From the NCBI GenBank assembly GCA_965202625.1, contig CBDBBI010000010.1, positions 1,902,468-1,966,467 on the forward strand: a DNA stretch of 64,000 nt, written 5' to 3'. Below, in pieces: positions 8,312 to 56,342 of this stretch. Origin of the DNA: a bacterium. Lineage in GTDB: Bacteria > UBA8248. Each line of letters starts with the position of its first letter. The stretch's first letter is position 1. Made by a program: the position numbers and the translations under genes. A model generated the notes under the pieces. The model had not been told where the DNA came from, did no database searches, and saw only the letters and a list, made by a program, of their open reading frames with translations.

Positions 8312-8586
8312 ACGCCAAGAGCGGCACGCCCGGAATCGACGCAGCTCCTCGAAGGAGGGAAAGCCGCGCGTCCGCGCGCCATATTTGCGGAAACGGGCGC
8401 GAGGCGCAGCGGGACAGCGATATCGTATGTTGGGGCGAAGCCGGCGAACCAACCGTCTATTTTCAACGTAAAACGGCTCAAAAATGGATTCTACGCATAG
8501 ATGCTCTCCGCCGTTCACGCGGAGATTTTCAGGGTGAATGATTTCGTGCGGCGGTTCTACGGGTAAGGTCCCGCGCCCGCCCGGGG

Positions 8587-11500
8587 CTACGCCCGCAGCG
8601 ACGCGAGCGTCTCCACCCAGAGTTTCAGGTTGCGCTCGGCGCGCGCCTTGTCCGTCAGCCGCTTGCTGGAGTGGGCCACGTATTCGTTGCGAAAATTGTT
8701 CACCTTCGCGATGCGCTCCAGCAGTTTGTTCGCCTCCGGCAACGAGCGGAACGCCCCGCGCGCGGCGGCGAACACGCCGTCGAGCTTCGGGTCGTCTTTC
8801 AGCGCATAGTCGAGGCAGGAGCGCAGCAGGCCGATCACGGAAAACGGATTGCCGTAGAGCAGCCCGCGCTTCAATTTTTTCGCCATTTCCCGATAATGCG
8901 CGCGCGCTCTTTCGTCTATGTTCCCCCAATGCGGATCGAACCATGCTTCCTGTTCATGCCGGTTTGTGGGAACCTTGTCGCACAAGCGAATCAGAATCAT
9001 GGCCTTGCAGGCGTCATCCAGCGGCCCCAGCAGGGCGGTGAATACGGGGGAGAGATTGGGCGCGTCTTTTTTTCGCTCGAAAAACCGGTAAAGCTCCAGT
9101 GCATCCGTCGCCGCCCTCCTCTCCCGCTCTCCCAGCCTTCCGAACGTCTCCGCCGAGAAGAAACTCTCCGCGTCCGTCTCCTCCCGGGCGAAGAAGGGCA
9201 ATTCCGGCGCATCCGTCGCCTCGCTCAGCAGATTTTGCAGCGCGGGTGCGCAGGAACGCACGAGAGCGTCGAAACGGTTGCTCGTCAACCTCTCCATCAC
9301 ATTCTGGGGAGTGAAGACGTATTCCCACTTGACGCCGCTCGAGGCGGCGGCGCGGCACCACTCCATCGCCGCGCGCGCCTTGCGCGACACGTCCGCGTCC
9401 TGCCTTCCCTTGGTTTCCACCAGATAATGCGCGCCGTCCTCCATTCGCACGAAAAAATCCGGCGTATAGAATGCGAGCCGTTGCGCGCGCGTGAGATAGT
9501 CAATCCGCAACGCCTGGGGGCCGGCGTTCTTGGCGAACGCCGCCACGTCCGGAGCGGCGTCAAGAAAGGCCGTCATCGCCACTTCAAGCGACTGGTTGCA
9601 GGGCGTGAGATTGAAAAGCGTCTTGTCAGCGCGCACAACGGGCCGCCGCTCGGAGCTCGTCGCCTGATAGGGCTTCCAGTCGCGCAGGGACGTCCCGCCC
9701 CCACCGGCGCGGCGTTTTTTCGTCCGGGTCGTTCGCGCGCGAATGAGCGGAACGAAGACGGCGCGAATGTGCTCGCGCACGTCCTGATCGGCAAGGCGCG
9801 CGGTGAGACGCGGATTGGTCAGGCTCACCTTCTCGCCGAACAGAATCTCGCCCAGAAAAACTTCCAGCAGCGGGGCGAGGACGGCGTGCGTGCTGCGCAC
9901 CTTGCAGGCGATCTCCAGCTCAAGGACGTAAAACGATATCGCGGTGAAACCGTTCGCGAGCAACTCCAAGCGGACCTCCATCCGCTCGACCACCTCGTCG
10001 GTGAACAGATGGCGTCCCTCGTATTTGACCTCGCGCGCTTCCCCGCGTCCAAGCGGCAGGGAGCGCAAGGGTGCGGCCGCGTTCCGCACGTCCTGGACGG
10101 AGAGGTTCTCCAGCGTAGGCTGTATTTTGTGGGCCGCCGTCAGCGCGGGCAAAACGACGTCGAGCGCATCCCCATCCTTGTGCTCATCCGGAAAAATCGA
10201 GACCGTGGTGGCCGGAACCTTATCCGCGTCCGTCTCTCCTATCGGCAGGCCCTCCTGCTCGAGTTGTTCCTTATACAGACTCGTGAAGGCCGGATGCTCC
10301 ACCACGACGACCAACTCGTCCGCCCCTCCGGTTCCGGGCGGCGTCATGCGGCGCAGCCCGCGCCCGAGCGTCTGCTCGGGCAAGATGTTCGCCTGCGCAC
10401 TGTATGGCCGCAGCGGCACGATGGTGGTGACGTTGCGCACGTCCCAGCCCTCGCGCAGCATGAGCACGGAAACGATGCAGGCGTAGCGGCTTTCATCGCT
10501 GTCCAGCTCCCGGCTGATGCGCCGAAGCGCCTTGAGGTCCTCATCGCTTATCTGTCTTTCGCTCTCCTCGAAAACGCGTATCTTTTGCCCGCCAACCTCC
10601 TTGTTCCTGATTCTTCCCTTGAGATTCGTGTGCAGGTTGATCGTCTTACCGTTCAGCTCTTTGAAGATCGCGTCGCCGTTCAGCCGACGGGTTATATCGT
10701 CCGCCGCCTTGGTGTCCTCGCACATGACGAACAGCAGGGGTCTCTTGCCGCTCTTCGCCCACTCGTTCCGGCTGTGCCGCCACCGTTCGTAACCGAGGCG
10801 CAGATGCGCCTCGTAGCGATAGGCGGCGTCCTCATGCGGCTGCTCAACCAGATCGGGCGTGCGGCCGATGATGGGCGTTTTGACAATGCCGGCGTCCACC
10901 GCCTCGCCGAGCGGCGTATCGCAGACGACGTGCGGAAAAAAATAGCCCTTGTTGTCTTTGGGCGTCGCCGAAAAATCCATCTGGGCGACCAGGCCGCCCG
11001 CGCGACTGGCCAGTGCTCTGTGAAGCGCGCGTATCGCCCCGCTCCACGCCGAGCCCGGATCCCAGACGTGATGCGCCTCGTCGTTCAGCAGCATCACCCG
11101 CCGATGGGAAGTAATGCGCTCGCGCAGCTTCGCACCGGTATCGAGTGCGCTCGCTCTCGACACGGACGGCCCGGCCCAAGGGTGGGTTTCGGCGTCCCTC
11201 CGGCCGCTCCGGCGCTCCTCGAAGAGGCGGTGCACGTTGGTGAGGTAGAGTGCGCCTCCGGTCGTCGCCCCGCCCGCCTCATCCTGCAGGATGACCGAGA
11301 AATTCCAGTCCCCGCGCCATTCGGGCGGAATGAGCGGATCCTTCAGGAAGATGTCCGGGCCGCCGCCCTCAGGCCGAAAATCCTCCTTCAGACGCTCGAA
11401 CACAGTCAGGTTCGGGGCGATGACGAGGAAATGCCGTGCCATGTCCGATCCGCTTTCTCTCAGAGCGTGAAAATAGCTCCAGACGATGGCGAGGCTCATG

Positions 11501-11985
11501 CACTTTGTCTTGCCCGCTCCGGTCGCCAGCTTGAAGGCGTAGCGCGGCCATTCGTCCTCCTCGGAGCTGACGCCGTAAGCGTCGTTTTCCGCGCCCGCCC
11601 CTCCGAACTCGCAGATGAGGGAGGAGAGCGAGCGGAGGCGGCGCACCTCCATCAGATAGACGAAGGTCTCTATCGCCTCACGCTGACAGAAATAGTAGCG
11701 AAACGCGGCTTCCGCCCCATCCGTCTCCATGATGCGATGCGGACGCCCGAACCAGTGGTTGAGCAGGGCGCGCGTGGTGCCGCTGGCGCCGACATAGCCC
11801 GACTCCCGCCATTCCTTGACGAGTGCGCGCAGTGGATCGACGAGCCTGTTCGGTGAGGGGCGCCGGTAGGTCTTGATCTCCGCCGGATGCCCCTCCGCCG
11901 CGCGGACCCGGTGCTTGTCCGGCTCCTCCCAGGGGGCGAAAAGGGGCGCCGCAGCGGCAGGGTTGACGACCGGCGTTGGGTTCAT
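8587..11985 (-). CDS. res: Type III restriction enzyme Res subunit (SF2 helicase + PD-(D/E)xK nuclease) with ~250-aa C-terminal extension
   Basis: 1132 aa. DEAD/DEAH helicase motifs ('FKLATGAGKT', 'LLNDEAHH'). C-terminal endonuclease region 'FYTPDFFVRMEDGAHYLVETKG'. Four-nt ATGA overlap with the upstream mod. An extra C-terminal tail ends in 'FRNEYVAHS'. Confidence 0.9.
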   Translation of the reverse strand: MNPTPVVNPAAAAPLFAPWEEPDKHRVRAAEGHPAEIKTYRRPSPNRLVDPLRALVKEWRESGYVGASGTTRALLNHWFGRPHRIMETDGAEAAFRYYFCQREAIETFVYLMEVRRLRSLSSLICEFGGAGAENDAYGVSSEEDEWPRYAFKLATGAGKTKCMSLAIVWSYFHALRESGSDMARHFLVIAPNLTVFERLKEDFRPEGGGPDIFLKDPLIPPEWRGDWNFSVILQDEAGGATTGGALYLTNVHRLFEERRSGRRDAETHPWAGPSVSRASALDTGAKLRERITSHRRVMLLNDEAHHVWDPGSAWSGAIRALHRALASRAGGLVAQMDFSATPKDNKGYFFPHVVCDTPLGEAVDAGIVKTPIIGRTPDLVEQPHEDAAYRYEAHLRLGYERWRHSRNEWAKSGKRPLLFVMCEDTKAADDITRRLNGDAIFKELNGKTINLHTNLKGRIRNKEVGGQKIRVFEESERQISDEDLKALRRISRELDSDESRYACIVSVLMLREGWDVRNVTTIVPLRPYSAQANILPEQTLGRGLRRMTPPGTGGADELVVVVEHPAFTSLYKEQLEQEGLPIGETDADKVPATTVSIFPDEHKDGDALDVVLPALTAAHKIQPTLENLSVQDVRNAAAPLRSLPLGRGEAREVKYEGRHLFTDEVVERMEVRLELLANGFTAISFYVLELEIACKVRSTHAVLAPLLEVFLGEILFGEKVSLTNPRLTARLADQDVREHIRAVFVPLIRARTTRTKKRRAGGGGTSLRDWKPYQATSSERRPVVRADKTLFNLTPCNQSLEVAMTAFLDAAPDVAAFAKNAGPQALRIDYLTRAQRLAFYTPDFFVRMEDGAHYLVETKGRQDADVSRKARAAMEWCRAAASSGVKWEYVFTPQNVMERLTSNRFDALVRSCAPALQNLLSEATDAPELPFFAREETDAESFFSAETFGRLGERERRAATDALELYRFFERKKDAPNLSPVFTALLGPLDDACKAMILIRLCDKVPTNRHEQEAWFDPHWGNIDERARAHYREMAKKLKRGLLYGNPFSVIGLLRSCLDYALKDDPKLDGVFAAARGAFRSLPEANKLLERIAKVNNFRNEYVAHSSKRLTDKARAERNLKLWVETLASLRA

Positions 11986-13994
11986 ACCTGCACCTCGAGA
12001 GTGATGCTGGTATCGCAGCCGAACACGTCCACCACTTTAATGCAGGCGGTGTGCCTGCCTGCGCTCTCGTAGGAGAAGTGCGCGTCGCTCACCGTCTTGA
12101 GGCTTCTGTCCTTTCGCGTGCGGTAGTCCTGCCAGTGGTGGTGGAAGGGCTGGCCCGGCGCCCAATCAAAATCAACCGCCCAGAAGTCGATGAAGTCAAA
12201 CCCGTTTTCAACCGCCCGCTCCTCGAGCGCCTCCAGTTCTTTGGCGGGAACCTCCGTCAGAGAGGGAATGAAGCGGGTGAGCTTCACGTCGGTCGTCTCG
12301 TCTTTCCGGATAACCTGCTCGGCGGTGAGTGCCGCCATCTCGTAAAACGGCGGAATTTCCACCCGGTTCTTTTCCATGATCTCTCTGGGAATGCGGCGCA
12401 GGCGCATTTTGAGGTCGAGCTCCGCCTCTATGGCGGCGACGGATTGATGGACGTCCATCTCGAAATCCCATGCCAGGCAGTTCACCTCGCGCCCGCCCGC
12501 CGCCTTGGCGGCTTTGGCGACTTCCGCCGCCTCCTCCCTCGTGAAAATGCCGTCGATGCCGTCCACGTGAACGAAGGCGCCGCCTTTTCGCCCATGTATG
12601 AGCGGAGAGGGCGCGTCGTTCAGAATTTCCGCGCGGAAGAACTTGAGGACGAGGGCGCGGTGCTCCCCATCCGCCCCGTTCAGGGTCTCGCGCTGCCACC
12701 ACTGCCGCTCGTAGCGGCCGAGGTTATACACGTCGAAGGAGCGATAGGGCCTGTCCTCCCTATACACCTCCCGCTGAATCCCTATCATGCGCTTGCGCGT
12801 CGTGTGAACGGCGAAGCGCCCGAAATCCGCGCATATCCACCGGCGGCCCAGCTTCTCCGCAACCGCCGCCGTCGTGCCCGAACCGCAAAAGAAATCCGCC
12901 ACCAGATCCCCCTCGTTCGACGACGCTTTCATCATGCGTTCAAGGAGGGCTTCCGGCTTTTGGGTCGGGTAGTCAAGGTATTCATTGCCCTGAGTCGCCC
13001 TCACGTCAACCCAGACATCACGGCATCTCACACCCTTTCCCATGTATAGCTTACGTCCTGGAACCTTGCCCTTTGCAATGATTAATTCACCGTTTTCAAT
13101 CCAGCGGAGAGCCGTCTCCAAAGGCATTCGGTAGCCCCCCGATGGCGCTTTTTCACCATATCCTAAATCATAGACGTAGCCTCCACCCCCAGGGTTATCT
13201 ATTGGCCGCACTTCGGATATCGTCCCTTTTCATCAGAATAACGATACAGTTTTTGACTTGCGTCACTGTATTCTTGAAATACATCGTTCCACCGTAGTCC
13301 GCCTTTGCGGTAGAAGAAAATTGTTTCGTGGGATTTTAAACTTCTTGTTCTTAGATGCGTATCCACCAACTGCGCCGTATGCCAGATAACCTCGTTCTGA
13401 AACAAAATTTTCCTTGCCAAAAACTTCATCCAAAACGTTTCGCAAATAACCACTCACCCGCCAGTCGCAATGCACATAGATGCTTCCGTCCTCGGCGAGC
13501 AGTTCCCGCATGAGAGCCAGACGCTCGGACATCATGGCGAGGTAGGAGTCCGTCCCCTTTCCCCACGTGTCCCGATATGCGACGAACTCCAGCAGGGATT
13601 GCTCCTTGGCGACCGCCTCCCTCCCCTCTCCTATCCCCGCCTGAAAGGTGAAGTCCGCGCCCACGTCGAAGGGCGGGTCGATGTAGATGAGGCGTATCTT
13701 CCCCCGGAACTCCTCCAGCAGGGAGGCCATCACCAGCCTGTTGTCCCCCCAGATGAGGCGGTTTCTGAAACCATCCCGGTGGGCGCGCCCCGCATCGAAC
13801 AACTCGCCCTGGGCCGCCGCGCGCGAGCGGGGCTCGTCTATCGTCTCTATCTTCTGAAACGGCATGGCGCGGCCGGCGACGTCCGCCTCCCGACGGTTGC
13901 CGAACTCGTCGTATTTCCCCTCCCAGACGAGCTCCGTCTTCATCCGGAAGAGCGGATGCGGATTGTGCGGGCCAAAAGCGGGCTTGTCGCTCAT
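11982..13994 (-). pseudogene. mod: Type III Mod N6-adenine DNA methyltransferase, disrupted by two frameshifts
   Basis: The protein is spread over three reading frames. 13994..13263 carries motif IV 'DPPF' and 'VLDEVFGKENFVSE'. 13453..13199 carries 'NEVIWH...ETIFFYRKGG...YRYSDEKGRY'. 13211..11982 carries motif I 'DFFCGSGTT'. The frame junctions lie near 13388 and 13224-13230, both at short homopolymers. Confidence 0.8.
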
Positions 13995-14745
13995 GGAAAA
14001 CGAATCTCGCTTGCGGAATCATTCAGGGGATACACCAGCAGAGGATAGCACGACGCGCATTTCGGCGGAAACGGTGTAACCGGACAAAAATCATTGCGCA
14101 TGGCCTGGAAAAATAGCGGATTTTCCGGAGCGTAAAACGCCCGGAAAAAGAACGTTGAAAAAACCTCTCAAAGCAGGTCGTCGGGGGCGACGGCGTCCTC
14201 GTCATTCCGGCGAAAGCCGGAGGGGCGGCAATCTTTCGGGCAGGCATCCCTCCCCTTCGCGTTCCTTCCCTTCGCGCGCGACCCCAAACAAGGCGGCCAG
14301 ATACGCGGCGCATCGCGCCGATATTCGCTGGCTTCCGACGAGTGCCACACCTTCCACAACGACTCGGAGGAGACGATGGAGTTCGTCTGCATGATTCCCG
14401 TGAGCGCGACCAGGGCGCATGACCATGAAAGGGTGCGGCCTTCCGCCCCTCCGCCAGTATAACCCTATATGTTGGACTGAAGCCCAAGGGCACATACAAT
14501 AAGTAGAATATACCCCTTCCCAGGGGAGCGCCTTGATGAAAGAATCGTTTTTTATTTCTATAAATGATTAAATATCAAATATTTATGACAATTATCACAT
14601 AAATTGTTTCAGATTATCCTTTCGCCCGCAAAATTTTTCACGCAAAAAATCAATAAATACAACAAGATACAGGCATAAGCAAAAAACAACTTGAAATATA
14701 TCCCGACCCTTTGCTAAGTTTGGCGGCATCCCAGTCCTTTCCCTC

Positions 14746-16212
14746 TTGGGTGGCAAAATGACGAACCTGGCAAGAGACCTCTCTTCCCTCATCACGTTGG
14801 TGAGCAACGTCATGGAGGCTTACTCCGCCTGCCTGTTTCTCCAGAACAAAAAGCACAAGAACTACCAGCTCACCGCCTACCACAGCCTGAGCCCGCACAT
14901 CATCGCCGACGCCTCGGTGGAGGTCGGCCAGGGCTTCATGGGCTGGGTTCTCGAGAACAACGAGCCGTTAAGCGTGAACCAGTTCGACAGGGACACCATC
15001 GTCCTAGGCTATTACAACAGAAACGAGGACATCAAATCCTTCATGGCGACTCCCTTGCCCTCGTCGGCCAACAGCGGGGCGCTCGCCATCGACAGCAAGA
15101 AAAGCTGGTGCTTCACGTCCAAAGACCAGAAAATACTCGAGGGGTTCGCCCAGCAATTCGCCTATCTTGCAGACAACGCCCTGGCAGCCGTTCAAATCGA
15201 GCACCGCTCCATGAACGTCTCCGCTTTCGGCAAATACCTGGCCTCGATTCGCGAAAGCGAAAGCGAAGACCAGTTGCTGAACGCAATATGCCAGACGCCG
15301 CACGAGTTGCTTCCCTTCGACGCCTGCTTCCTCGTTCTCATCGACGAGCAAGCAGGCTCTCCTCGCCTGTCGAAAATATCAGGATTCGGGGAGCTTTTTC
15401 CGGGCGAAATCGCCATCAGCGAGCGGGCGAGCGTGGCGGGATACGTGCTCCGTAAAAAAGAGGCTCTCAGACTCCCCGACCTCAAGAGTCAAAAAGGAAC
15501 CAAACCCCTGTTCCATCATGACGAGCCGCGCCTGGCAGCGCGCTCCGCCCTATGCCTCCCCTTGATTTCAGGAGGCGAGATTCTGGGCTGTCTGGGTTTC
15601 ACGAGCAAGCGGCGCGCGCGATTCGACGCCTATTCCCTCAGGCGTGGGAAAATCATCGCGACTCTGGCGGCGGACGCCATCGCGCATCGCCAAAACGAGG
15701 CGCGCTGGCGGGCACGCCTGGAAATAGACCCCCTCACCGGCGAGCGAAACGCGCAACATCTCCTGTCCTGCCTTCATGAAACTATTCAGGACGTGGAAGC
15801 CAGGGGGCGTCAACTCGCGCTGCTCAGCATCGCTCCCGACGATGCGCCGCTATGGAAGGACATGCCCGAGCAAGAGCTCATCCTTCCTCTTTTTCATGCT
15901 CTCAAACAATTCGTCAACGGAACCGACGTTCTCGTTCGCCATGAGGGGCCGTGCTTTCTCTTGTTGTTGAAGGATTCGTCTCAAGAATACGCTGAAACCA
16001 TCGCGGAGCGCATTATTCATATCGTTCGCAACACCCCTTTCCATATTGGCGGAGAAGAAGCCGAAATCACCATTTCGATAGGCGCCGCATGTTTCCCCGA
16101 AAACGCGCAAAAACCGAAAGATCTCATCAAATCATCTCTTGAGGCATTGGCTTTCGCTCAACGAGGGGGTGCGGCAAATCAACTTTGCTTTATGGAGGGA
16201 AATGGACGATGA
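14746..16212 (+). CDS. GAF-domain protein with degenerate GGDEF (diguanylate-cyclase-like) C-terminal domain
   Basis: Two GAF-like regions, then a GGDEF-fold tail in which the GG[DE]EF site reads 'RHEGPCF' (degenerate). An AT-rich promoter region lies at 14500-14745. Confidence 0.6.
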   Translation: MGGKMTNLARDLSSLITLVSNVMEAYSACLFLQNKKHKNYQLTAYHSLSPHIIADASVEVGQGFMGWVLENNEPLSVNQFDRDTIVLGYYNRNEDIKSFMATPLPSSANSGALAIDSKKSWCFTSKDQKILEGFAQQFAYLADNALAAVQIEHRSMNVSAFGKYLASIRESESEDQLLNAICQTPHELLPFDACFLVLIDEQAGSPRLSKISGFGELFPGEIAISERASVAGYVLRKKEALRLPDLKSQKGTKPLFHHDEPRLAARSALCLPLISGGEILGCLGFTSKRRARFDAYSLRRGKIIATLAADAIAHRQNEARWRARLEIDPLTGERNAQHLLSCLHETIQDVEARGRQLALLSIAPDDAPLWKDMPEQELILPLFHALKQFVNGTDVLVRHEGPCFLLLLKDSSQEYAETIAERIIHIVRNTPFHIGGEEAEITISIGAACFPENAQKPKDLIKSSLEALAFAQRGGAANQLCFMEGNGR

Positions 16213-28259: not shown

Positions 28260-28448
28260 CGCATACCCCTCTATGTCTCTATGTCGTGAAACGCCTGCGG
28301 CGCATCGGTTTGATTATCCGCGTGGAACAAGGATATGATCTCTGCCTCATACGTTCAACCCGAAAACTCGCATTCGCCCGGCCCTTGGCGGACGCCGCCG
28401 GCGTCCGGGCTTCGACGTTTTCAGAATGCGGGGAAAAGGAGGTCGCTC

Positions 28449-29624
28449 ATGCCGGAAGCTCCTGCGAACACGAACTGGTTCACCTACTTTCCCGAGGACT
28501 ATCGATGGTCAGCCGCCATCTGCGGCATGGCGTCGAGCGCGCAGTGGGGCGGGGCCGAAATCGGTGAGATCGACAAGGTCTGTCGCCGTCTCTACAAAAA
28601 ACTCGGAGACGACGACCTCTGGTTTCAGGAGTGGGACCGCATGGGCGACGTCGTGCGGGATCTGGGGCTCGACGCCGAGCGCAAAAAGCGGAACCTCTCC
28701 GCCGCCTCCCACTACAAGCGCGCCGCTTGCTATTACCAGATGGGCGAGCGCTTCAAGACGCCCAAGGACAAAACGGCGGTAGCTACGTTCAAGAAATCGC
28801 TCGACGCCTTCCGCCGCTTCACGCACCTGACGGACCGGCCCAGAATCGAGGCCGTAGAGGTTCCCTTTGAGGGAAGAAAGAAGTTGCCCGGCTATCTGGC
28901 GCACGCCGAGAACACAAAAAGTAGAAAACCCCCCGTCGTGGTCTTCTTCGACGGACTCGACGTCAACAAGGAGCTGCAATACCTTCGCGGAGTGGAGGAC
29001 ATCGTCCGCCGGGGCATGAGCTGTCTGGTGATGGACGGCCCCGGCACGGGCGAGGCCATTCGCTTGCGCAACATCTACCTGCGCCCCGACTACGAGGTCG
29101 CAGGCTCCGCCGCGCTCGACTATCTCGAAGGAAGAGACGACGTGAACGCGAAGCGCGCGGGCGTCATGGCCATCAGCCTGGGCGGCTACTACGCCCCGCG
29201 CATCGCCAGCATGGAGCCGCGCTACAAGGCGTGTCTCGCCTGGGGGGCGATCTGGGACTACCACGCCACCTGGAAGAAGCGCATCGACGCCTCCTTCAAG
29301 GCGGAGCTCTCCGTTCCGGGCCATCACATCCAGTGGATTCTGAACGCAGCCTCGCTCAAGGACGCCCTCGTCAAGCTCGAGGGCTTCCGGCTGGATGGCG
29401 TGGTACAGAAGATGCAGTGTCCCTTTCTCCTCACGCACGGGGAGGACGACAAACAAATTCCGCTCACAGACGCCGAGGCGCTCTTCAACGCCGTCGGCTC
29501 CAAGGACAAAACGCTCAAGGTATTCACCGTGGAGGAGGGCGGCGCCCAGCACTGCCAGCGGGACAACTACGCCATAGGCACGGCCTATATGTTCGACTGG
29601 CTCCAGGAGAAGCTGGGCGCGTAG
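28449..29624 (+). CDS. alpha/beta hydrolase, 2,6-dihydroxypseudooxynicotine-hydrolase-like family (paralog 1)
   Basis: ATG at 28449 verified with RBS 'aaggagg'. Nucleophile elbow 'ISLGGYYA'. 'EGGAQHCQ' C-terminal region. Confidence 0.8.
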   Translation: MPEAPANTNWFTYFPEDYRWSAAICGMASSAQWGGAEIGEIDKVCRRLYKKLGDDDLWFQEWDRMGDVVRDLGLDAERKKRNLSAASHYKRAACYYQMGERFKTPKDKTAVATFKKSLDAFRRFTHLTDRPRIEAVEVPFEGRKKLPGYLAHAENTKSRKPPVVVFFDGLDVNKELQYLRGVEDIVRRGMSCLVMDGPGTGEAIRLRNIYLRPDYEVAGSAALDYLEGRDDVNAKRAGVMAISLGGYYAPRIASMEPRYKACLAWGAIWDYHATWKKRIDASFKAELSVPGHHIQWILNAASLKDALVKLEGFRLDGVVQKMQCPFLLTHGEDDKQIPLTDAEALFNAVGSKDKTLKVFTVEEGGAQHCQRDNYAIGTAYMFDWLQEKLGA

Positions 29625-29972
29625 GGGCGAAGAAATCGCGCGGCGGCCTGGTTTTCCGCCTCTCGTTTCCATGCGCCGGAGGCGGCCAGAAGTGGATTCG
29701 CCCAGATGCGGCCCGCATCAGGTTTTGCTATGCCCAACGGCCCCGCGTCGTCCCCGCGTCTGGCGACCCGACTTCACGGACGGGGCGTTTCTACAACGAT
29801 GACGCGGGGATGGGCGTTGTGATAGGATTTCGCCCATCCGAAAAATTGCGCGCAGAAAATAAGGTTTTTGAAAAGGGCGTTGTTCAGGAAAATCCGTTTT
29901 CTCGACTCTCCTGCGCAATCTCTCAGGAAGGACACTCGTCCTGCTTTTTCATTCTCTCAAGGAGAACGCCTC

Positions 29973-31148
29973 ATGGCCAAAGCCGTTCGCAAAGAACCCT
30001 GGTTCGCGTATTTTCCCGACGACTACCGCTGGTCAGCGGGCGTGAGCATCGCCTGCTCGACCTCCTACTGGGGCGCCGCCACGATGGGAGAGATCGACAG
30101 GGTGTGCCGAAGGCTTGAGGGCAAGGTGGGAGACGACGACGCCTGGTTCGTCGAATGGACGAAAGAGGCCGACAGGATGCGCGCTCTGGGGCTGGCCGCC
30201 GCCAGAAAAAAGAACGCTCTCTCAGCCGCCGCCCTCCACAAGCGCGCGTGTTTCTACTATCAGCTCGGCGAGCGCTTCAGGACGCCCAAGGACAAGGCGG
30301 CGAACAACGCCTATCGCAAATCCCTCGACTCCTTCGCGCACTTCGCCGCGCTCACGGATTCTCCGCGCATCGAGTGCGTGGAAATCCCCTTTGAAGGGAA
30401 AAAGGCACTGCCCGCCATCCTCGTCCACGCGCAAAACACGCGCAAGGCGAAGCCGCCCGTCGTGGTGTCCTTCGACGGCTTTGACGTCTCGAAGGAAATT
30501 CAATACCTGCTGGGCGCCGAAGACCTGGCGCGCCGAGGGGTGAGCGTGCTGGCGGTGGACGCGCCTGGAAACGGGGAGGCGATTCGCTTCAGAAATCTTT
30601 TCTTGCGGCACGACCACGAGGTCGCGGGCGCAGCGGCACTCGACTATCTGGAAGGACGAGACGACGTGAACGCCGGGCGCGCCGGCGTTATGGCAATAAG
30701 CCTCGGCGGCTACTACGCGCCGAGAAACGCGAGCATGGAGCAGCGCTTCAAGGCGTGCGTGGCCTGGGGGGCGATTTGGGACTACGAGAAGGTATGGCGC
30801 GATCGAATCGCCGCCGCCTACAAGACGGCACTCTCCGTTCCCGGACATCATCTGAACTGGATATTCAACGCGGAGTCCACCGAGGATTCCCTCGAGCGGC
30901 TTGAGGGCTTCAAGCTCGACGGCGTGGTGGAGAAGATGCGATGCCCGTTTTTATTGATTCACGGGGAGGGAGATCAGCAAATATCCCTCGCCGATGCGCG
31001 CAAGCTCTACAAGGCCGCAGGCTCGAAGGACAAGACGCTCCGAATCGTCAAGGGGACGGAAACCGGCGCCCAGCATTGCCAGATGGACAACGTCCCCCCC
31101 TATGCGCATGAGATTTTCGATTGGCTCAAGCAGAAGCTGGGCGCTTAG
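29973..31148 (+). CDS. alpha/beta hydrolase, same family (paralog 2)
   Basis: Collinear with paralog 1 over its full length ('WFAYFPDDYRW', 'ISLGGYYAPR', 'TGAQHCQ'). Confidence 0.8.
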   Translation: MAKAVRKEPWFAYFPDDYRWSAGVSIACSTSYWGAATMGEIDRVCRRLEGKVGDDDAWFVEWTKEADRMRALGLAAARKKNALSAAALHKRACFYYQLGERFRTPKDKAANNAYRKSLDSFAHFAALTDSPRIECVEIPFEGKKALPAILVHAQNTRKAKPPVVVSFDGFDVSKEIQYLLGAEDLARRGVSVLAVDAPGNGEAIRFRNLFLRHDHEVAGAAALDYLEGRDDVNAGRAGVMAISLGGYYAPRNASMEQRFKACVAWGAIWDYEKVWRDRIAAAYKTALSVPGHHLNWIFNAESTEDSLERLEGFKLDGVVEKMRCPFLLIHGEGDQQISLADARKLYKAAGSKDKTLRIVKGTETGAQHCQMDNVPPYAHEIFDWLKQKLGA

Positions 31149-38300: not shown

Positions 38301-39473
38301 TCACGCGACCCTGAACCTGTCCATCCACCAGTCCGCAATCCACTCGCCGCACGTCGGCAGGTTGTCGAAGACGCAATGCTGGCTGCCGCCATCCTCAAGC
38401 GTGAAGATTTTCAGCTGCTTCTCCTTTGAGCCGCACGCCTCATACAACTTGCGTGCCATCTTGACCGGCACGATGTTGTCGTCCGCCCCGTGGATGATGC
38501 AGATGGGCATCCGTATCCTCTCCGCGACGCCCGCCAGCGTATAGGCCTTGCATTTTTCCATCGCCGAGTCCATGTCCGGCGTTCCCAGCACCCAAGGAAG
38601 CTGCCATATGGCGGAGGAGGAAACCGTGCCGCCGCCCTCCAGAACCTTGCGCCTGTGAACCCAGACCTCGTGATAGTCAAAATGGGCGCCCCAGGCGAGA
38701 CAGGCCGCGTAGCGATGCTCAAAGGCGGCGATGCGCGGGGCGTAGTAACCCCCCATGCTCATGGCCATGAGGCCGATGCGCGCGGAATCCACCTCGGGCC
38801 GCGCGTCGAGAAAATCGAAGGCCGCCGTTCCGGCCGCCTCGTAATCCGGACGACTCGGTATCTTCCGAAGCCTGAGCGTCTCCCCCTGGCCTGGTCCATC
38901 CACGCAGAGTGCCCCGACGCCGCGCTCCGTCAGAGAAAGTGCGCCCCACAGCGCGGTGATCTCCTTGGAACCGTCGAGTCCATCAAAAAAGGCGACATAG
39001 GGATCGCGCCCCGTTGGGTTTCTGGGCGGAAAAAGGTAGGCCGCGAGCGGGCCCTCCTCATAGGGTACCTCCACGCGCTGAAATCCGGGTGCGCGGCCCT
39101 TCATCCCCTTCTCGTAGTGGAGAAGCAATTTTTTGTAGGATTGCGCTTTTCTCGGATCGCCAGGATGCACGAAACGCTCGCTCGCGTAGCGATAGATCGC
39201 GCTTCGCACATAGGCGGCCATCGAGGTGCGCGCATGGCCCTTGCGCTCCTCCTCCTCGGCGCGGGTCAGGGTTTTATCCGCCATCCAGGTCCACGCCTCG
39301 CGCCATGCTTCGGCGTCGCCTGTCCGCCCGCTCAGGCGTTTTCCAACCTGATCCACCTCCTGGAAGTTCGATCCGCCCATCGGCGCGACGCTGATTAGCC
39401 CCGCCATCAACTGCGACCATAGATAGTGCTCGGGAAAATACCGAAACCACGAGCCGACGATGGCCTCCGCCAT
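38301..39473 (-). CDS. alpha/beta hydrolase, 2,6-dihydroxypseudooxynicotine-hydrolase-like family (paralog 3)
   Basis: Same architecture as 28449 and 29973 ('WFRYFPEHYLW', 'MSMGGYYAPR', 'GGSQHC'). Confidence 0.8.
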   Translation of the reverse strand: MAEAIVGSWFRYFPEHYLWSQLMAGLISVAPMGGSNFQEVDQVGKRLSGRTGDAEAWREAWTWMADKTLTRAEEEERKGHARTSMAAYVRSAIYRYASERFVHPGDPRKAQSYKKLLLHYEKGMKGRAPGFQRVEVPYEEGPLAAYLFPPRNPTGRDPYVAFFDGLDGSKEITALWGALSLTERGVGALCVDGPGQGETLRLRKIPSRPDYEAAGTAAFDFLDARPEVDSARIGLMAMSMGGYYAPRIAAFEHRYAACLAWGAHFDYHEVWVHRRKVLEGGGTVSSSAIWQLPWVLGTPDMDSAMEKCKAYTLAGVAERIRMPICIIHGADDNIVPVKMARKLYEACGSKEKQLKIFTLEDGGSQHCVFDNLPTCGEWIADWWMDRFRVA

Positions 39474-39752
39474 AAGAAAAGCCTCCTCAAACCTGAACGC
39501 GCTGACGCGCTCCAAAACGTGAAAACCATACACGCAACGCCGGCGATTTCACAAGGAGCACAAAGAAAAGTACGATCGCAGAAAATCCATATTCACGCTT
39601 TGACGCCCCATTCCCACACGTGATAGACTTCTTAGAATCGATAGCAAAAAAGGGGGCTTCTCCAGGAAGTCGCAGCGAGCTAGAAAATCTGGATTTTCCG
39701 GTTTTCTCAACAGGGTATGGAACCCATCTCTTCATCCAAAGGAGGAAAGCAC

Positions 39753-53960: not shown

Positions 53961-55439
53961 GTGAACAAACTCTCGGGGGCTTTTTTTCTGTTGCTCGCCC
54001 TGATGGTCGGATGCGCTGCGCCCCATCGGGCGGCGCAACCCCCTCTGGCGGCGCAGGTCTCGTGCAGAGCGTGGAACACTAAGAGGTTCTTCATGCGCGC
54101 CCGCGTCGCGGACGTTTCCCGTTGTCTTGCGGCCGGAGCGGACGTGAACGCACGGACCAAGAACGGAGCGACCCCCTTGCACGTGGCGGCGCATTTCAGC
54201 AAAAAGCCCGGCGTCGTGGCGACGCTCGCGAGAGCCGGAGCAGACGTGAACGCACGGGCTAAGCTCGGAGCGACGCCACTGCACTGGGCAGCGGCGCAAA
54301 GCAAAACGCCCGATGTCGTAGCGGCGCTCGTCAGAGCCGGAGCGAGGGTGAACGCGCGGATCAAGATCGGATTGACGCCCCTCCATGTGGCGGCGCAGTT
54401 CAGCCAAACGCCTGGGGTTGTGGCGGCGCTCGTAAAGGCCGGAGCGAACCCGGCGGTAAAAGACAAAACAGGCAAAACGCCGTGGGATTACGCGAAACAA
54501 AACGTCGCGCTCAAGGGAACGGAAGTCTATCGGCGGCTGAGCGAGGGATGGACGCCCCAGCATAGGGCGGCGGCGAACAGCAACACGCCCCGTGTCGTAG
54601 CGGCGCAGGTCTCGTGCAGAGCATGGAACACTTCGAGGTTCTTCATACGCGCCCGCGTCGTGGACGTTTCCCGTTGTCTTGCGACCGGAGCAGACGTGAA
54701 CGCACGGGACAAGGACGGATTGACACCCCTGCACCGATTGACGCCCCTGCACCGGGCGGGGGCGTACAGCAAGGCGCCCGGTATCGTGGCGGCGCTCGCG
54801 AGGGCCGGAGCAGACCTGAACGCACGGGACAAGAACGGAGCGACGCCACTGCACTGGGCAGCGGCGCGAAGCAAGACGCCCGGTGTCGTGGCAGCGCTCG
54901 TGAAGGCTGGAGCGGACGTGAACGCGCGGAATGAGTACGGATCGACGCCACTGCACTCGGCGGCGAAGCACAGCAAGACGCCCGGTATCGTGGCAGCGCT
55001 CCTGAAAGCCGGCGCGGACGTGAACGCGCGGAATCCTAAGTATGAATGGACGCCCCTGCACTCGGCGGCGCAGTTCAGCCAAACGCCGGGTGTCGTGGCG
55101 GTGCTCGTGAACGCCGGAGCGAACGTGAACGCGCGAAACAAGAAAGGAACGACACCACTGCACGCGGCGGCACTGGACAGTAAGACGCCCGAAGTCGTGG
55201 CGGCGCTCGTAAAGGCCGGAGCGGACGCGGACGCGCGGGATGAGAACGGAGTGACGCCCCTGCACTTCGCGGCGGCGCAAAGCAAGACGCCCGGTGTCGT
55301 GGCAGCTTTGATGGATGCCGGCGCGGATCCGGCGGCAAAAACCCAAGAAGGCAAAACGCCGTGGGATTACGCGAAAGAAAACGACGCGCTCAAGGGAGGG
55401 GACGCCTATTGGCGGCTGAACGAGGGGCGATTCAAATAA
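53961..55439 (+). CDS. ankyrin-repeat lipoprotein (about 12 ANK repeats, internally duplicated)
   Basis: GTG start after RBS 'agaggag'. Lipobox 'LLALMVGCAAP'. Repeated 33-aa units 'GATPLHWAAAQSKTPGVVAALVKAGADVNAR'. The module 'AAQVSCRAWNT.RFF.RARV.DVSRCLA' occurs twice. Confidence 0.85.
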   Translation: MNKLSGAFFLLLALMVGCAAPHRAAQPPLAAQVSCRAWNTKRFFMRARVADVSRCLAAGADVNARTKNGATPLHVAAHFSKKPGVVATLARAGADVNARAKLGATPLHWAAAQSKTPDVVAALVRAGARVNARIKIGLTPLHVAAQFSQTPGVVAALVKAGANPAVKDKTGKTPWDYAKQNVALKGTEVYRRLSEGWTPQHRAAANSNTPRVVAAQVSCRAWNTSRFFIRARVVDVSRCLATGADVNARDKDGLTPLHRLTPLHRAGAYSKAPGIVAALARAGADLNARDKNGATPLHWAAARSKTPGVVAALVKAGADVNARNEYGSTPLHSAAKHSKTPGIVAALLKAGADVNARNPKYEWTPLHSAAQFSQTPGVVAVLVNAGANVNARNKKGTTPLHAAALDSKTPEVVAALVKAGADADARDENGVTPLHFAAAQSKTPGVVAALMDAGADPAAKTQEGKTPWDYAKENDALKGGDAYWRLNEGRFK

Positions 55440-55544
55440 AGCGCGTCTTGCTTGAGAGGAGGGCGGCGCAGACGCCTTTGCGAATGCGATTTCTCGCCCG
55501 TCGGAGACGATGCTTTGACGTTGCAACAAAAGAGGAGTGAAAAG

Positions 55545-56342
55545 ATGAAGAAACTCTCGGGGGTGTTTTTTCTGTTGCTTGCCCTGATGGTCGGCTGTCC
55601 TGCGCCCGCTCTGGCCGCGCAGGTCGCGTGCGGAGAATGGAACACTGTGGCGTTCTTCGAGCGCGCCCGTGGGGCGGACGTTTCCCGCTGTATTGCAGCC
55701 GGCGCGGACCTGAACGCGCGGGAGACCAGGTATGGAGCGACGCCCTTGCATATGGCGGCGGTGCTCAGCAAAACGCCCGGCGTCGTGGCGGCGCTCCTGA
55801 AGGCCGGAGCGGACGTGAACGCACGGGCCCAGGACGGAGCGACGCCACTGCACATGGCGGCCGTGCTAAGCAAAACGCCCGGTGCCGCCGTGGCGGCTCT
55901 CGCAAGAGCCGGCGCGGACCTGAACGCGCGGGAGACCAGGTACGGAGCGACGCCCCTGCACTGGGCGGCGGTGCGCAGCAAAACGCCCGGTGCCGCCGTG
56001 GCGGCGCTCCTGAAGGCCGGAGCGGACGTGAACGCGCGGGATAAGACCGGAGGGACGCCACTGCACATCGCGGCGGTGCGCAGCAAAACGCCCGGTGTCA
56101 TAGCGGTGCTCCTGAAAGCCGGAGCGGACGTGAACGCGCGGGACAAGCGCGGATGGACGCCACTGCACATCGCGGCGGTGCGCAGCAAAACGCCCGGTGC
56201 CGTGGAGACTTTACTGGACGCCGGGGCAAACCCGGCGGCAAAAAACAAAACAGGCCAAACGCCTTGGGATTACGCGCAAGAAAACGACGCGCTCAAGGGA
56301 GGGGACGCCTATTCGCGGCTGAAAGAGGGGCGGTTCAAATAA
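55545..56342 (+). CDS. ankyrin-repeat lipoprotein (about 6 ANK repeats), tandem paralog
   Basis: ATG at 55545 verified. Lipobox 'LLALMVGCPAP'. Same 33-aa repeat units and the same C-terminal 'TPWDYA.ENDALKGGDAY.RL.EGRFK' as the upstream gene. Confidence 0.85.
   Translation: MKKLSGVFFLLLALMVGCPAPALAAQVACGEWNTVAFFERARGADVSRCIAAGADLNARETRYGATPLHMAAVLSKTPGVVAALLKAGADVNARAQDGATPLHMAAVLSKTPGAAVAALARAGADLNARETRYGATPLHWAAVRSKTPGAAVAALLKAGADVNARDKTGGTPLHIAAVRSKTPGVIAVLLKAGADVNARDKRGWTPLHIAAVRSKTPGAVETLLDAGANPAAKNKTGQTPWDYAQENDALKGGDAYSRLKEGRFK

Follow-up and report, generated by a model that had tools for sequence, protein, structure and literature searches.

We describe a restriction-modification (R-M) operon of type III in a 64-kb window of bacterial DNA (the window being the whole 64,000-nucleotide stretch analysed), in which the methyltransferase gene mod is broken by several insertions and deletions and the adjoining restriction gene res is intact. 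The 5′ edge of the variable target recognition domain (TRD) holds all of these indels, within 190 bp. A second copy of mod on the same 2.9-Mb contig, about 99% identical to the first outside this patch, is broken there as well, by different indels. We infer that the patch is a consensus or polishing error, made where a gene repeated in this metagenome-assembled contig is hypervariable, a reading that we prefer tentatively, short of calling it probable. In systems of this type, Mod recognises its target through the central TRD and methylates adenine, and Res is a helicase-nuclease.

Anatomy of the mod-res operon

The earlier note on this DNA had identified a type III mod-res operon with the motif order of beta-class methyltransferases and an intact res, and both identifications hold: in mod, DPPF is followed by a variable region and then by FFCGSGTT, and res is open throughout. 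The two genes form one operon, with mod directly upstream of res. As had been noticed, mod falls into three open reading frame (ORF) pieces, but two reading frames are involved instead of three, the first piece sharing its frame with the last; Pfam N6_N4_Mtase is found in both of these outer pieces. The features of the operon, with positions in the window, lengths in amino acids (aa) or nucleotides (nt), and GC content at third codon positions (GC3), are as follows.

11982..13994, minus strand: mod, gene for a beta-class N6-adenine methyltransferase of type III, untranslatable in its written form
13263-13994, minus strand: mod ORF piece 1, 243 aa, carrying DPPF at 13668-13679
13199-13453, minus strand: mod ORF piece 2, 84 aa, one base out of frame
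11982-13211, minus strand: mod ORF piece 3, 409 aa, carrying FFCGSGTT at 12870-12893
13407..13994, minus strand: mod N-terminal scaffold, intact, frame 1, containing motif IV (DPPF, 13668-13679); GC3 0.81
13210..13408, minus strand: mod patch of indels, at the TRD's 5′ edge, located by frameshift-aware alignments and the back-translated second copy
12950..13500, minus strand: mod variable TRD, poor in GC3 and covering Mod aa about 166-350; GC 0.43-0.53
11985..13209, minus strand: mod C-terminal part, frame 1, with the TRD's second half, TQKPE (12951-12965), motif I FFCGSGTT and a conserved C-terminal domain of ~270 aa
11982..11985, minus strand: overlap of the mod stop and the res start, ATGA, 4 nt
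8587..11985, minus strand: res, intact, 1132 aa, identified by Pfam, PADLOC, and helicase and nuclease motifs

The 4-nt overlap of mod and res is likewise present in loci L081 and L082. Res carries Walker A (GAGKT, aa 156), DEAH (aa 302) and PD-(D/E)xK-like (TPDF...ETKG, aa 841-860) motifs; Pfam finds ResIII (E 2e-12) and, at 23.8 bits and just under the cut-off, a TnsA-like nuclease domain. Antisense to res runs a 1061-aa open frame (window 8671-11856, plus strand), in all likelihood not a gene but a shadow ORF of GC-rich DNA. The intergenic stretch at 14500-14700, between the divergent mod and GAF-GGDEF gene, is very AT-rich (GC 0.30) and is presumably promoter DNA.

Number and position of the indels

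Pairwise frameshift-aware alignment requires at least two frameshifts in mod. The two frameshifts described previously survive as a minimum only, and the better count is four, as favoured by frameshift-aware alignment to a profile of 12 homologues that share the TRD type of the window and show zero length variation across ...NF.NE..W.SAVGDTSAKNRKFIKSHDT.... At frameshift penalties from -8 to -15 the best solution has four frame changes, at 13406, 13381, 13337 and 13216. A penalty of -6 calls six to eight, and at -20 or harsher two changes are enough, namely 13337 and 13216, which do not include the first site proposed in the earlier note. The comparison with relatives of mod that had been suggested there was made with these homologues; no close orthologue was found for a DNA-level comparison, and two protein searches returned no intact or fragmentary relative above 70-78% identity.

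The lesions comprise an insertion of 4 nt (or 1 nt) at 13402-13408, an insertion of 2 nt at about 13381, a loss of 2 nt at 13337 that cuts an Ile codon down to 'A', and an insertion of 2 nt at 13210-13218, which resolves into two 1-nt insertions when set against the paralogue. Two further indels may sit near 13364 and near 13357, and a total of six or seven is possible. In the four-change model, frame 2 contributes FQNEVIW and KSHETIFFYRK...DEKGRY, and frame 1 contributes AVGGYASKNKKF and everything after RPIDNPGGGG. Together, the indels disrupt the conserved NExxW and KSHxT motifs and create stop codons.

Homology also moves both junctions from where they had been drawn. The first, previously assigned to 'gaac' at 13388, falls at 13402-13408, inside GAAAATTTTGTTTCAG. 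The second had been assigned to 'cccttttc', but this run codes for the conserved DEKG in frame and the junction lies downstream, at 13210-13218 (CGATATCCGAAGTGCGG). The proposal that both junctions coincide with homopolymers can apply to the first at most, as no run longer than two occurs at the second. The 5-6-nt homopolymers found elsewhere in mod, G6 (13750 and 13140), T5 (13423) and A5 (13254), are all read in frame.

A second mod copy broken in the same patch

The second copy lies outside the window and is represented by two proteins, P0366 and P0370, which come from a contig of equal length and are the second members of the 90%-identity clusters of the two mod fragments. P0366 (253 aa) equals the window Mod up to FGKENF (aa 197) save for R70S, the one difference in a shared scaffold of about 198 aa, and then runs on as RNEIIWHYQSGGRQEKLFFYRKGGLRWNDVFQEYSDASQKLYRWILTKRDDTEVGQ to a stop codon. 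P0370 (306 aa) begins VADFFCGSG and has three substitutions relative to the window Mod. In the patch, the tail of P0366 was compared with the window DNA by degenerate back-translation, so that the differences found are a lower bound and not a DNA comparison. By this measure, insertions private to the window copy are 4 nt at 13404-13408 and 1 nt each at 13218 and 13210, and a 2-nt insertion at about 13240 is private to copy 2. The 82 nt at 13241-13322 are wholly compatible between the copies, which share an identical 26-aa core. When each copy is relieved of its private insertions, both give ...LYRYSDEKGRYRSRPIDNP..., and the length of the homologues is restored.

The 64-kb window itself holds no second mod copy, no second Res at 90% identity or higher is on record, and no conserved upstream partner gene of mod was found. 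On record from the same contig are Res, MreB, the GGDEF protein, a sigma factor and two mod fragments of 243 aa and 381 aa (the latter starting at the ATG at 13127). The AtpD of the window has 100% identity to a protein of the 2,917,376-bp contig and to a Logan contig from SRR7597013, which covers atpD only. Exact look-ups of Res and both mod fragments found no independent assembly, the fragments being on record from this contig only. Relatives of the AtpD encoded in the window, at 94-96% identity, are labelled 'MAG: Nitrospinae bacterium' (metagenome-assembled genome, MAG), and the contig is metagenome-derived.

Conservation outside the indels

Indels aside, Mod and Res match intact homologues in their degree of conservation. 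The corrected patch has zero stop codons and 61-67% identity to homologues of the same TRD type, vs 65-73% in its flanks. At columns conserved at 95% or more, the corrected Mod departs from the family at 3 of 207 (family median 3), and Res at 4 of its 309 conserved columns (family median 4). Zero indels occur in the other 1800 nt of mod and in 3400 nt of res. The conserved-site substitutions and scattered lesions that mark relaxed selection in a pseudogene are not seen.

Low GC is a trait of the TRD

The low-GC segment pointed out in the earlier note is real, with a GC content of 0.43-0.46 in 13200-13500 vs 0.60-0.69 elsewhere in the operon, but it spans ~550 bp (about 12950-13500, Mod aa 166-350) and not 260 bp. 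Within the window gene, GC3 is 0.81 in the N-terminal scaffold, 0.43 in the indel patch, 0.51 in the rest of the TRD and 0.80 in the C-terminal part. We aligned 78 homologous mod genes (from L001-L080) by codon, and in nearly every one GC3 over Mod aa about 166-350 lies 0.13-0.19 under the mean of the gene. The dip is found in high- and low-GC hosts alike, for example in L075 (0.53 vs 0.83) and L007 (0.32 vs 0.71). Across these homologues, one conserved scaffold carries many unrelated TRD types.

Because the dip is family-wide in 78 loci, low GC is uninformative on this particular copy, and it is ruled out as a sign of either decay or a foreign patch. The idea of a recombined foreign piece specific to this mod is not borne out, the low GC being a trait of the TRD at any host GC. 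Both a GC content lower in the recognition domain than in its flanks and the transfer of TRDs from one mod gene to another have precedents in modA12 (PMC3311624) and in the type III mods of Helicobacter (PMC3467074). The GC3 dip could be caused by rapid horizontal turnover, by relaxed codon selection or by a lack of GC-biased conversion.

An EcoP15I-like operon of a widespread family

The locus is an ordinary EcoP15I-like type III R-M operon, of an already known kind, belonging to a widespread and horizontally mobile family. More than 8000 intact proteins, 624-715 aa long, match the frame-corrected Mod (669 aa); the top match has 70% identity over 99% of its length. The PADLOC model MTase_III PDLC03633 matches Mod nearly end to end (E 4e-233). 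In a phmmer search of PDB, the nearest solved relative of Mod is EcoP15I Mod (4zcf_A, E 3.4e-22), aligned in two stretches within aa 76-381; this match provides the similarity to a confirmed type III Mod by which membership is judged in PMC3467074. For Res, PADLOC REase_III gives a partial match only (E 1e-24), the NCBIfam 'BPTD_3080 family restriction endonuclease' is likewise partial (260 bits against a cut-off of 800), and there is no sequence-level match among solved structures. The conserved operon and the near end-to-end Mod agree with the PADLOC pair PDLC03633 and REase_III, from which the locus differs in that Res is a partial match.

The resemblance to EcoP15I and EcoP1I (Mod2Res, PDB 4ZCF) extends to the mod-then-res gene order, to the order DPPF, TRD, FxGxG in Mod, and to the Walker A and DEAH helicase motifs and C-terminal PD-(D/E)xK of Res. 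It reaches into the TRD, where YKYIDKDGIY...NPGKEGYRYD in EcoP15I corresponds to LYRYSDEKGRY...NPGGGGYVYD in the window. In contrast to these systems, the window Mod has an additional conserved C-terminal domain of ~270 aa, Res is longer (1132 aa vs 970 aa), and mod is frameshifted.

A scan of species-representative genomes yielded 354 mod loci in many phyla, of which 80 were fetched for detailed comparison. In 74 of these 80, the gene after mod encodes a colinear Res of full length (51-76% identity). Two full copies of the system occur 27 kb apart on the same Hyphomicrobiales contig (L003 and L008). An extra 0.7-2 kb lies between mod and res in several loci (L004, L012 and L030), and Res itself is split between frames in four (L010, L011, L025 and L050).

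The surrounding island and its relatives

Upstream of mod, the window retains the end of a cupin gene.

14328..14430, plus strand: cupin gene 3′ remnant, last 33 of 117 codons, at the upstream edge of the variable island; intact in relatives

The full gene (117 aa) is intact in L084 (L084:2845-2976) and in L085 (L085:7658-8011). At the equivalent site in L085, a related Nitrospinae MAG (L085:1253-6218), a 64-codon 5′ remnant of mod (70% aa and 81% nt identity) precedes a gene of lower GC for a NACHT-like (STAND) NTPase of 1462 aa, which suggests a defence-island hotspot with system replacement. In the relative L086, 1.5 kb separates the NUDIX and GGDEF genes that flank the operon in the window, and this interval lacks an R-M system. 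Rfam and tRNA scans found no RNA element and no tRNA integration site.

Elsewhere in the window are three paralogous genes, 28314-29624 and 29826-31148 (plus strand) and 38301-39548 (minus strand). The first two form a tandem of about 76% nt identity, and the inverted third, about 9.4 kb off, is about 71% identical. Two adjacent genes at 53961-55439 and 55452-56342 (plus strand) encode proteins with lipoprotein signals and tandem 34-aa ankyrin-like repeats, with a 102-nt period and 64-91% nt identity between units.

How the frame came to be broken

Sequence error and decay, both raised in the earlier note, are retained as readings, and we lean towards artefact over genuine decay because the indels are clustered, substitutions are few and the lesions are private to each copy. 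Reads may have been mis-mapped between the mod copies, or between strains, at the hypervariable TRD, which would produce a faulty consensus; the real mod would then probably be intact or much less damaged. Several observations weigh against an error. The indels (+4, +2 and -2) lie in a non-repetitive context, unlike classic homopolymer miscalls, and the G6, T5 and A5 runs are correct. Copy 2 is ~30 nt shorter in 13323-13381, in frame, and is therefore a real second locus and no second noisy version of the window copy. Given the cupin remnant, the mod remnant in L085 and the empty site in L086, the mod locus is a variable defence island that is truly eroding. Further, 20 other window ORFs have end-to-end Pfam matches and the two repetitive ankyrin genes (53961-55439 and 55452-56342, plus strand) are intact, which rules out a general assembly-quality problem; since the rest of the window is clean, any consensus error would have to be very local. 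Genuine and very recent inactivation, with both mod copies decaying in a fast-turnover defence island, is a serious contender, if a somewhat doubtful one. It would fit the high quality of the assembly elsewhere, indel types that are atypical of homopolymer errors, the cupin remnant that adjoins mod, the 64-aa mod remnant with its NTPase in L085 and the lack of an R-M system at the L086 site, and to lose Mod first is safe in a type III system, where Res depends on Mod (PMC3467074). However, neutral decay would be expected to scatter over 5.4 kb, mostly as substitutions, whereas at least four indels are seen in 190 bp. Conservation is otherwise normal, and each of two copies with ~99% identity elsewhere carries its own independent set of indels. 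Decay would also require a patch-specific indel process, hitherto undescribed.

The consensus might instead be chimeric and reflect real heterogeneity in the population, with the operon copy and the orphan mod, or co-existing strains, swapping TRDs; we consider this unlikely. Exchange of TRDs between type III mod loci through recombination at conserved flanking motifs is documented (PMC3467074, PMC3311624), the two copies combine near-identical scaffolds and differing TRD starts with the identical 26-aa core, and many TRD types per scaffold exist across the family. Against it, the window holds no silent TRD cassette, shufflon or inverted repeat, and no recombinase close to mod, and the frame-corrected patch is uniformly of one TRD type, with no mosaic. 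ON/OFF switching of mod by repeat slippage, the other option raised in the earlier note, is dropped as vanishingly improbable. Such phase variation is common among type III mod genes of host-adapted pathogens (PMC2667262, PMC1976455), and the modA, modB and modH phasevarions of Neisseria, Haemophilus and Helicobacter resemble the window gene in their conserved 5′ and 3′ scaffold around a lower-GC mobile central recognition domain (PMC3311624, PMC3467074) and in a mod that is frequently out of frame. However, these genes switch by long tetranucleotide or homopolymer tracts, and the window mod has no such tract and carries several lesions in non-repetitive sequence. Phase variation is unsupported here because there is no repeat tract and the lesions are multiple and separate: no tandem or simple-sequence repeat occurs within 8400-14800, no homopolymer exceeds 6 nt anywhere in mod, the longest is read in frame, none lies at a junction, and one slippage event could not undo four or more independent lesions. 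We also hold it very improbable that, in this mod family, a localised process of indel formation or recombination works on the TRD's 5′ edge in two paralogues, one in the operon and one an orphan, and so switches type III on/off state or specificity without simple-sequence repeats.

Consequences for the system and its host

The earlier note held the system to be inactive as written, and we concur: mod is untranslatable, and the sequence as it stands encodes no Mod. In type III systems, Mod alone methylates and restriction requires a complex of Mod and Res (PMC3467074), so that no restriction activity would be expected of the system as written. By analogy with its family, the window Res would carry out ATP-dependent cleavage only together with Mod, at two inversely oriented unmethylated sites. 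Further, mod is translationally coupled to res via the ATGA overlap, which should lower Res as well; very likely little Res would be produced.

The finding is of little consequence except for annotation. Should the indels be errors, the record wrongly splits a functional methyltransferase into fragments, and would mislead inventories of R-M systems and methylomes drawn from metagenome-assembled genomes. The GC3 dip of the TRD is of some general use, as its presence in 78 loci from many phyla broadens an earlier report on Neisseria modA12. Should the indels be real, the type III system of this Nitrospinae-like organism would have died only recently, within a defence island of fast turnover.

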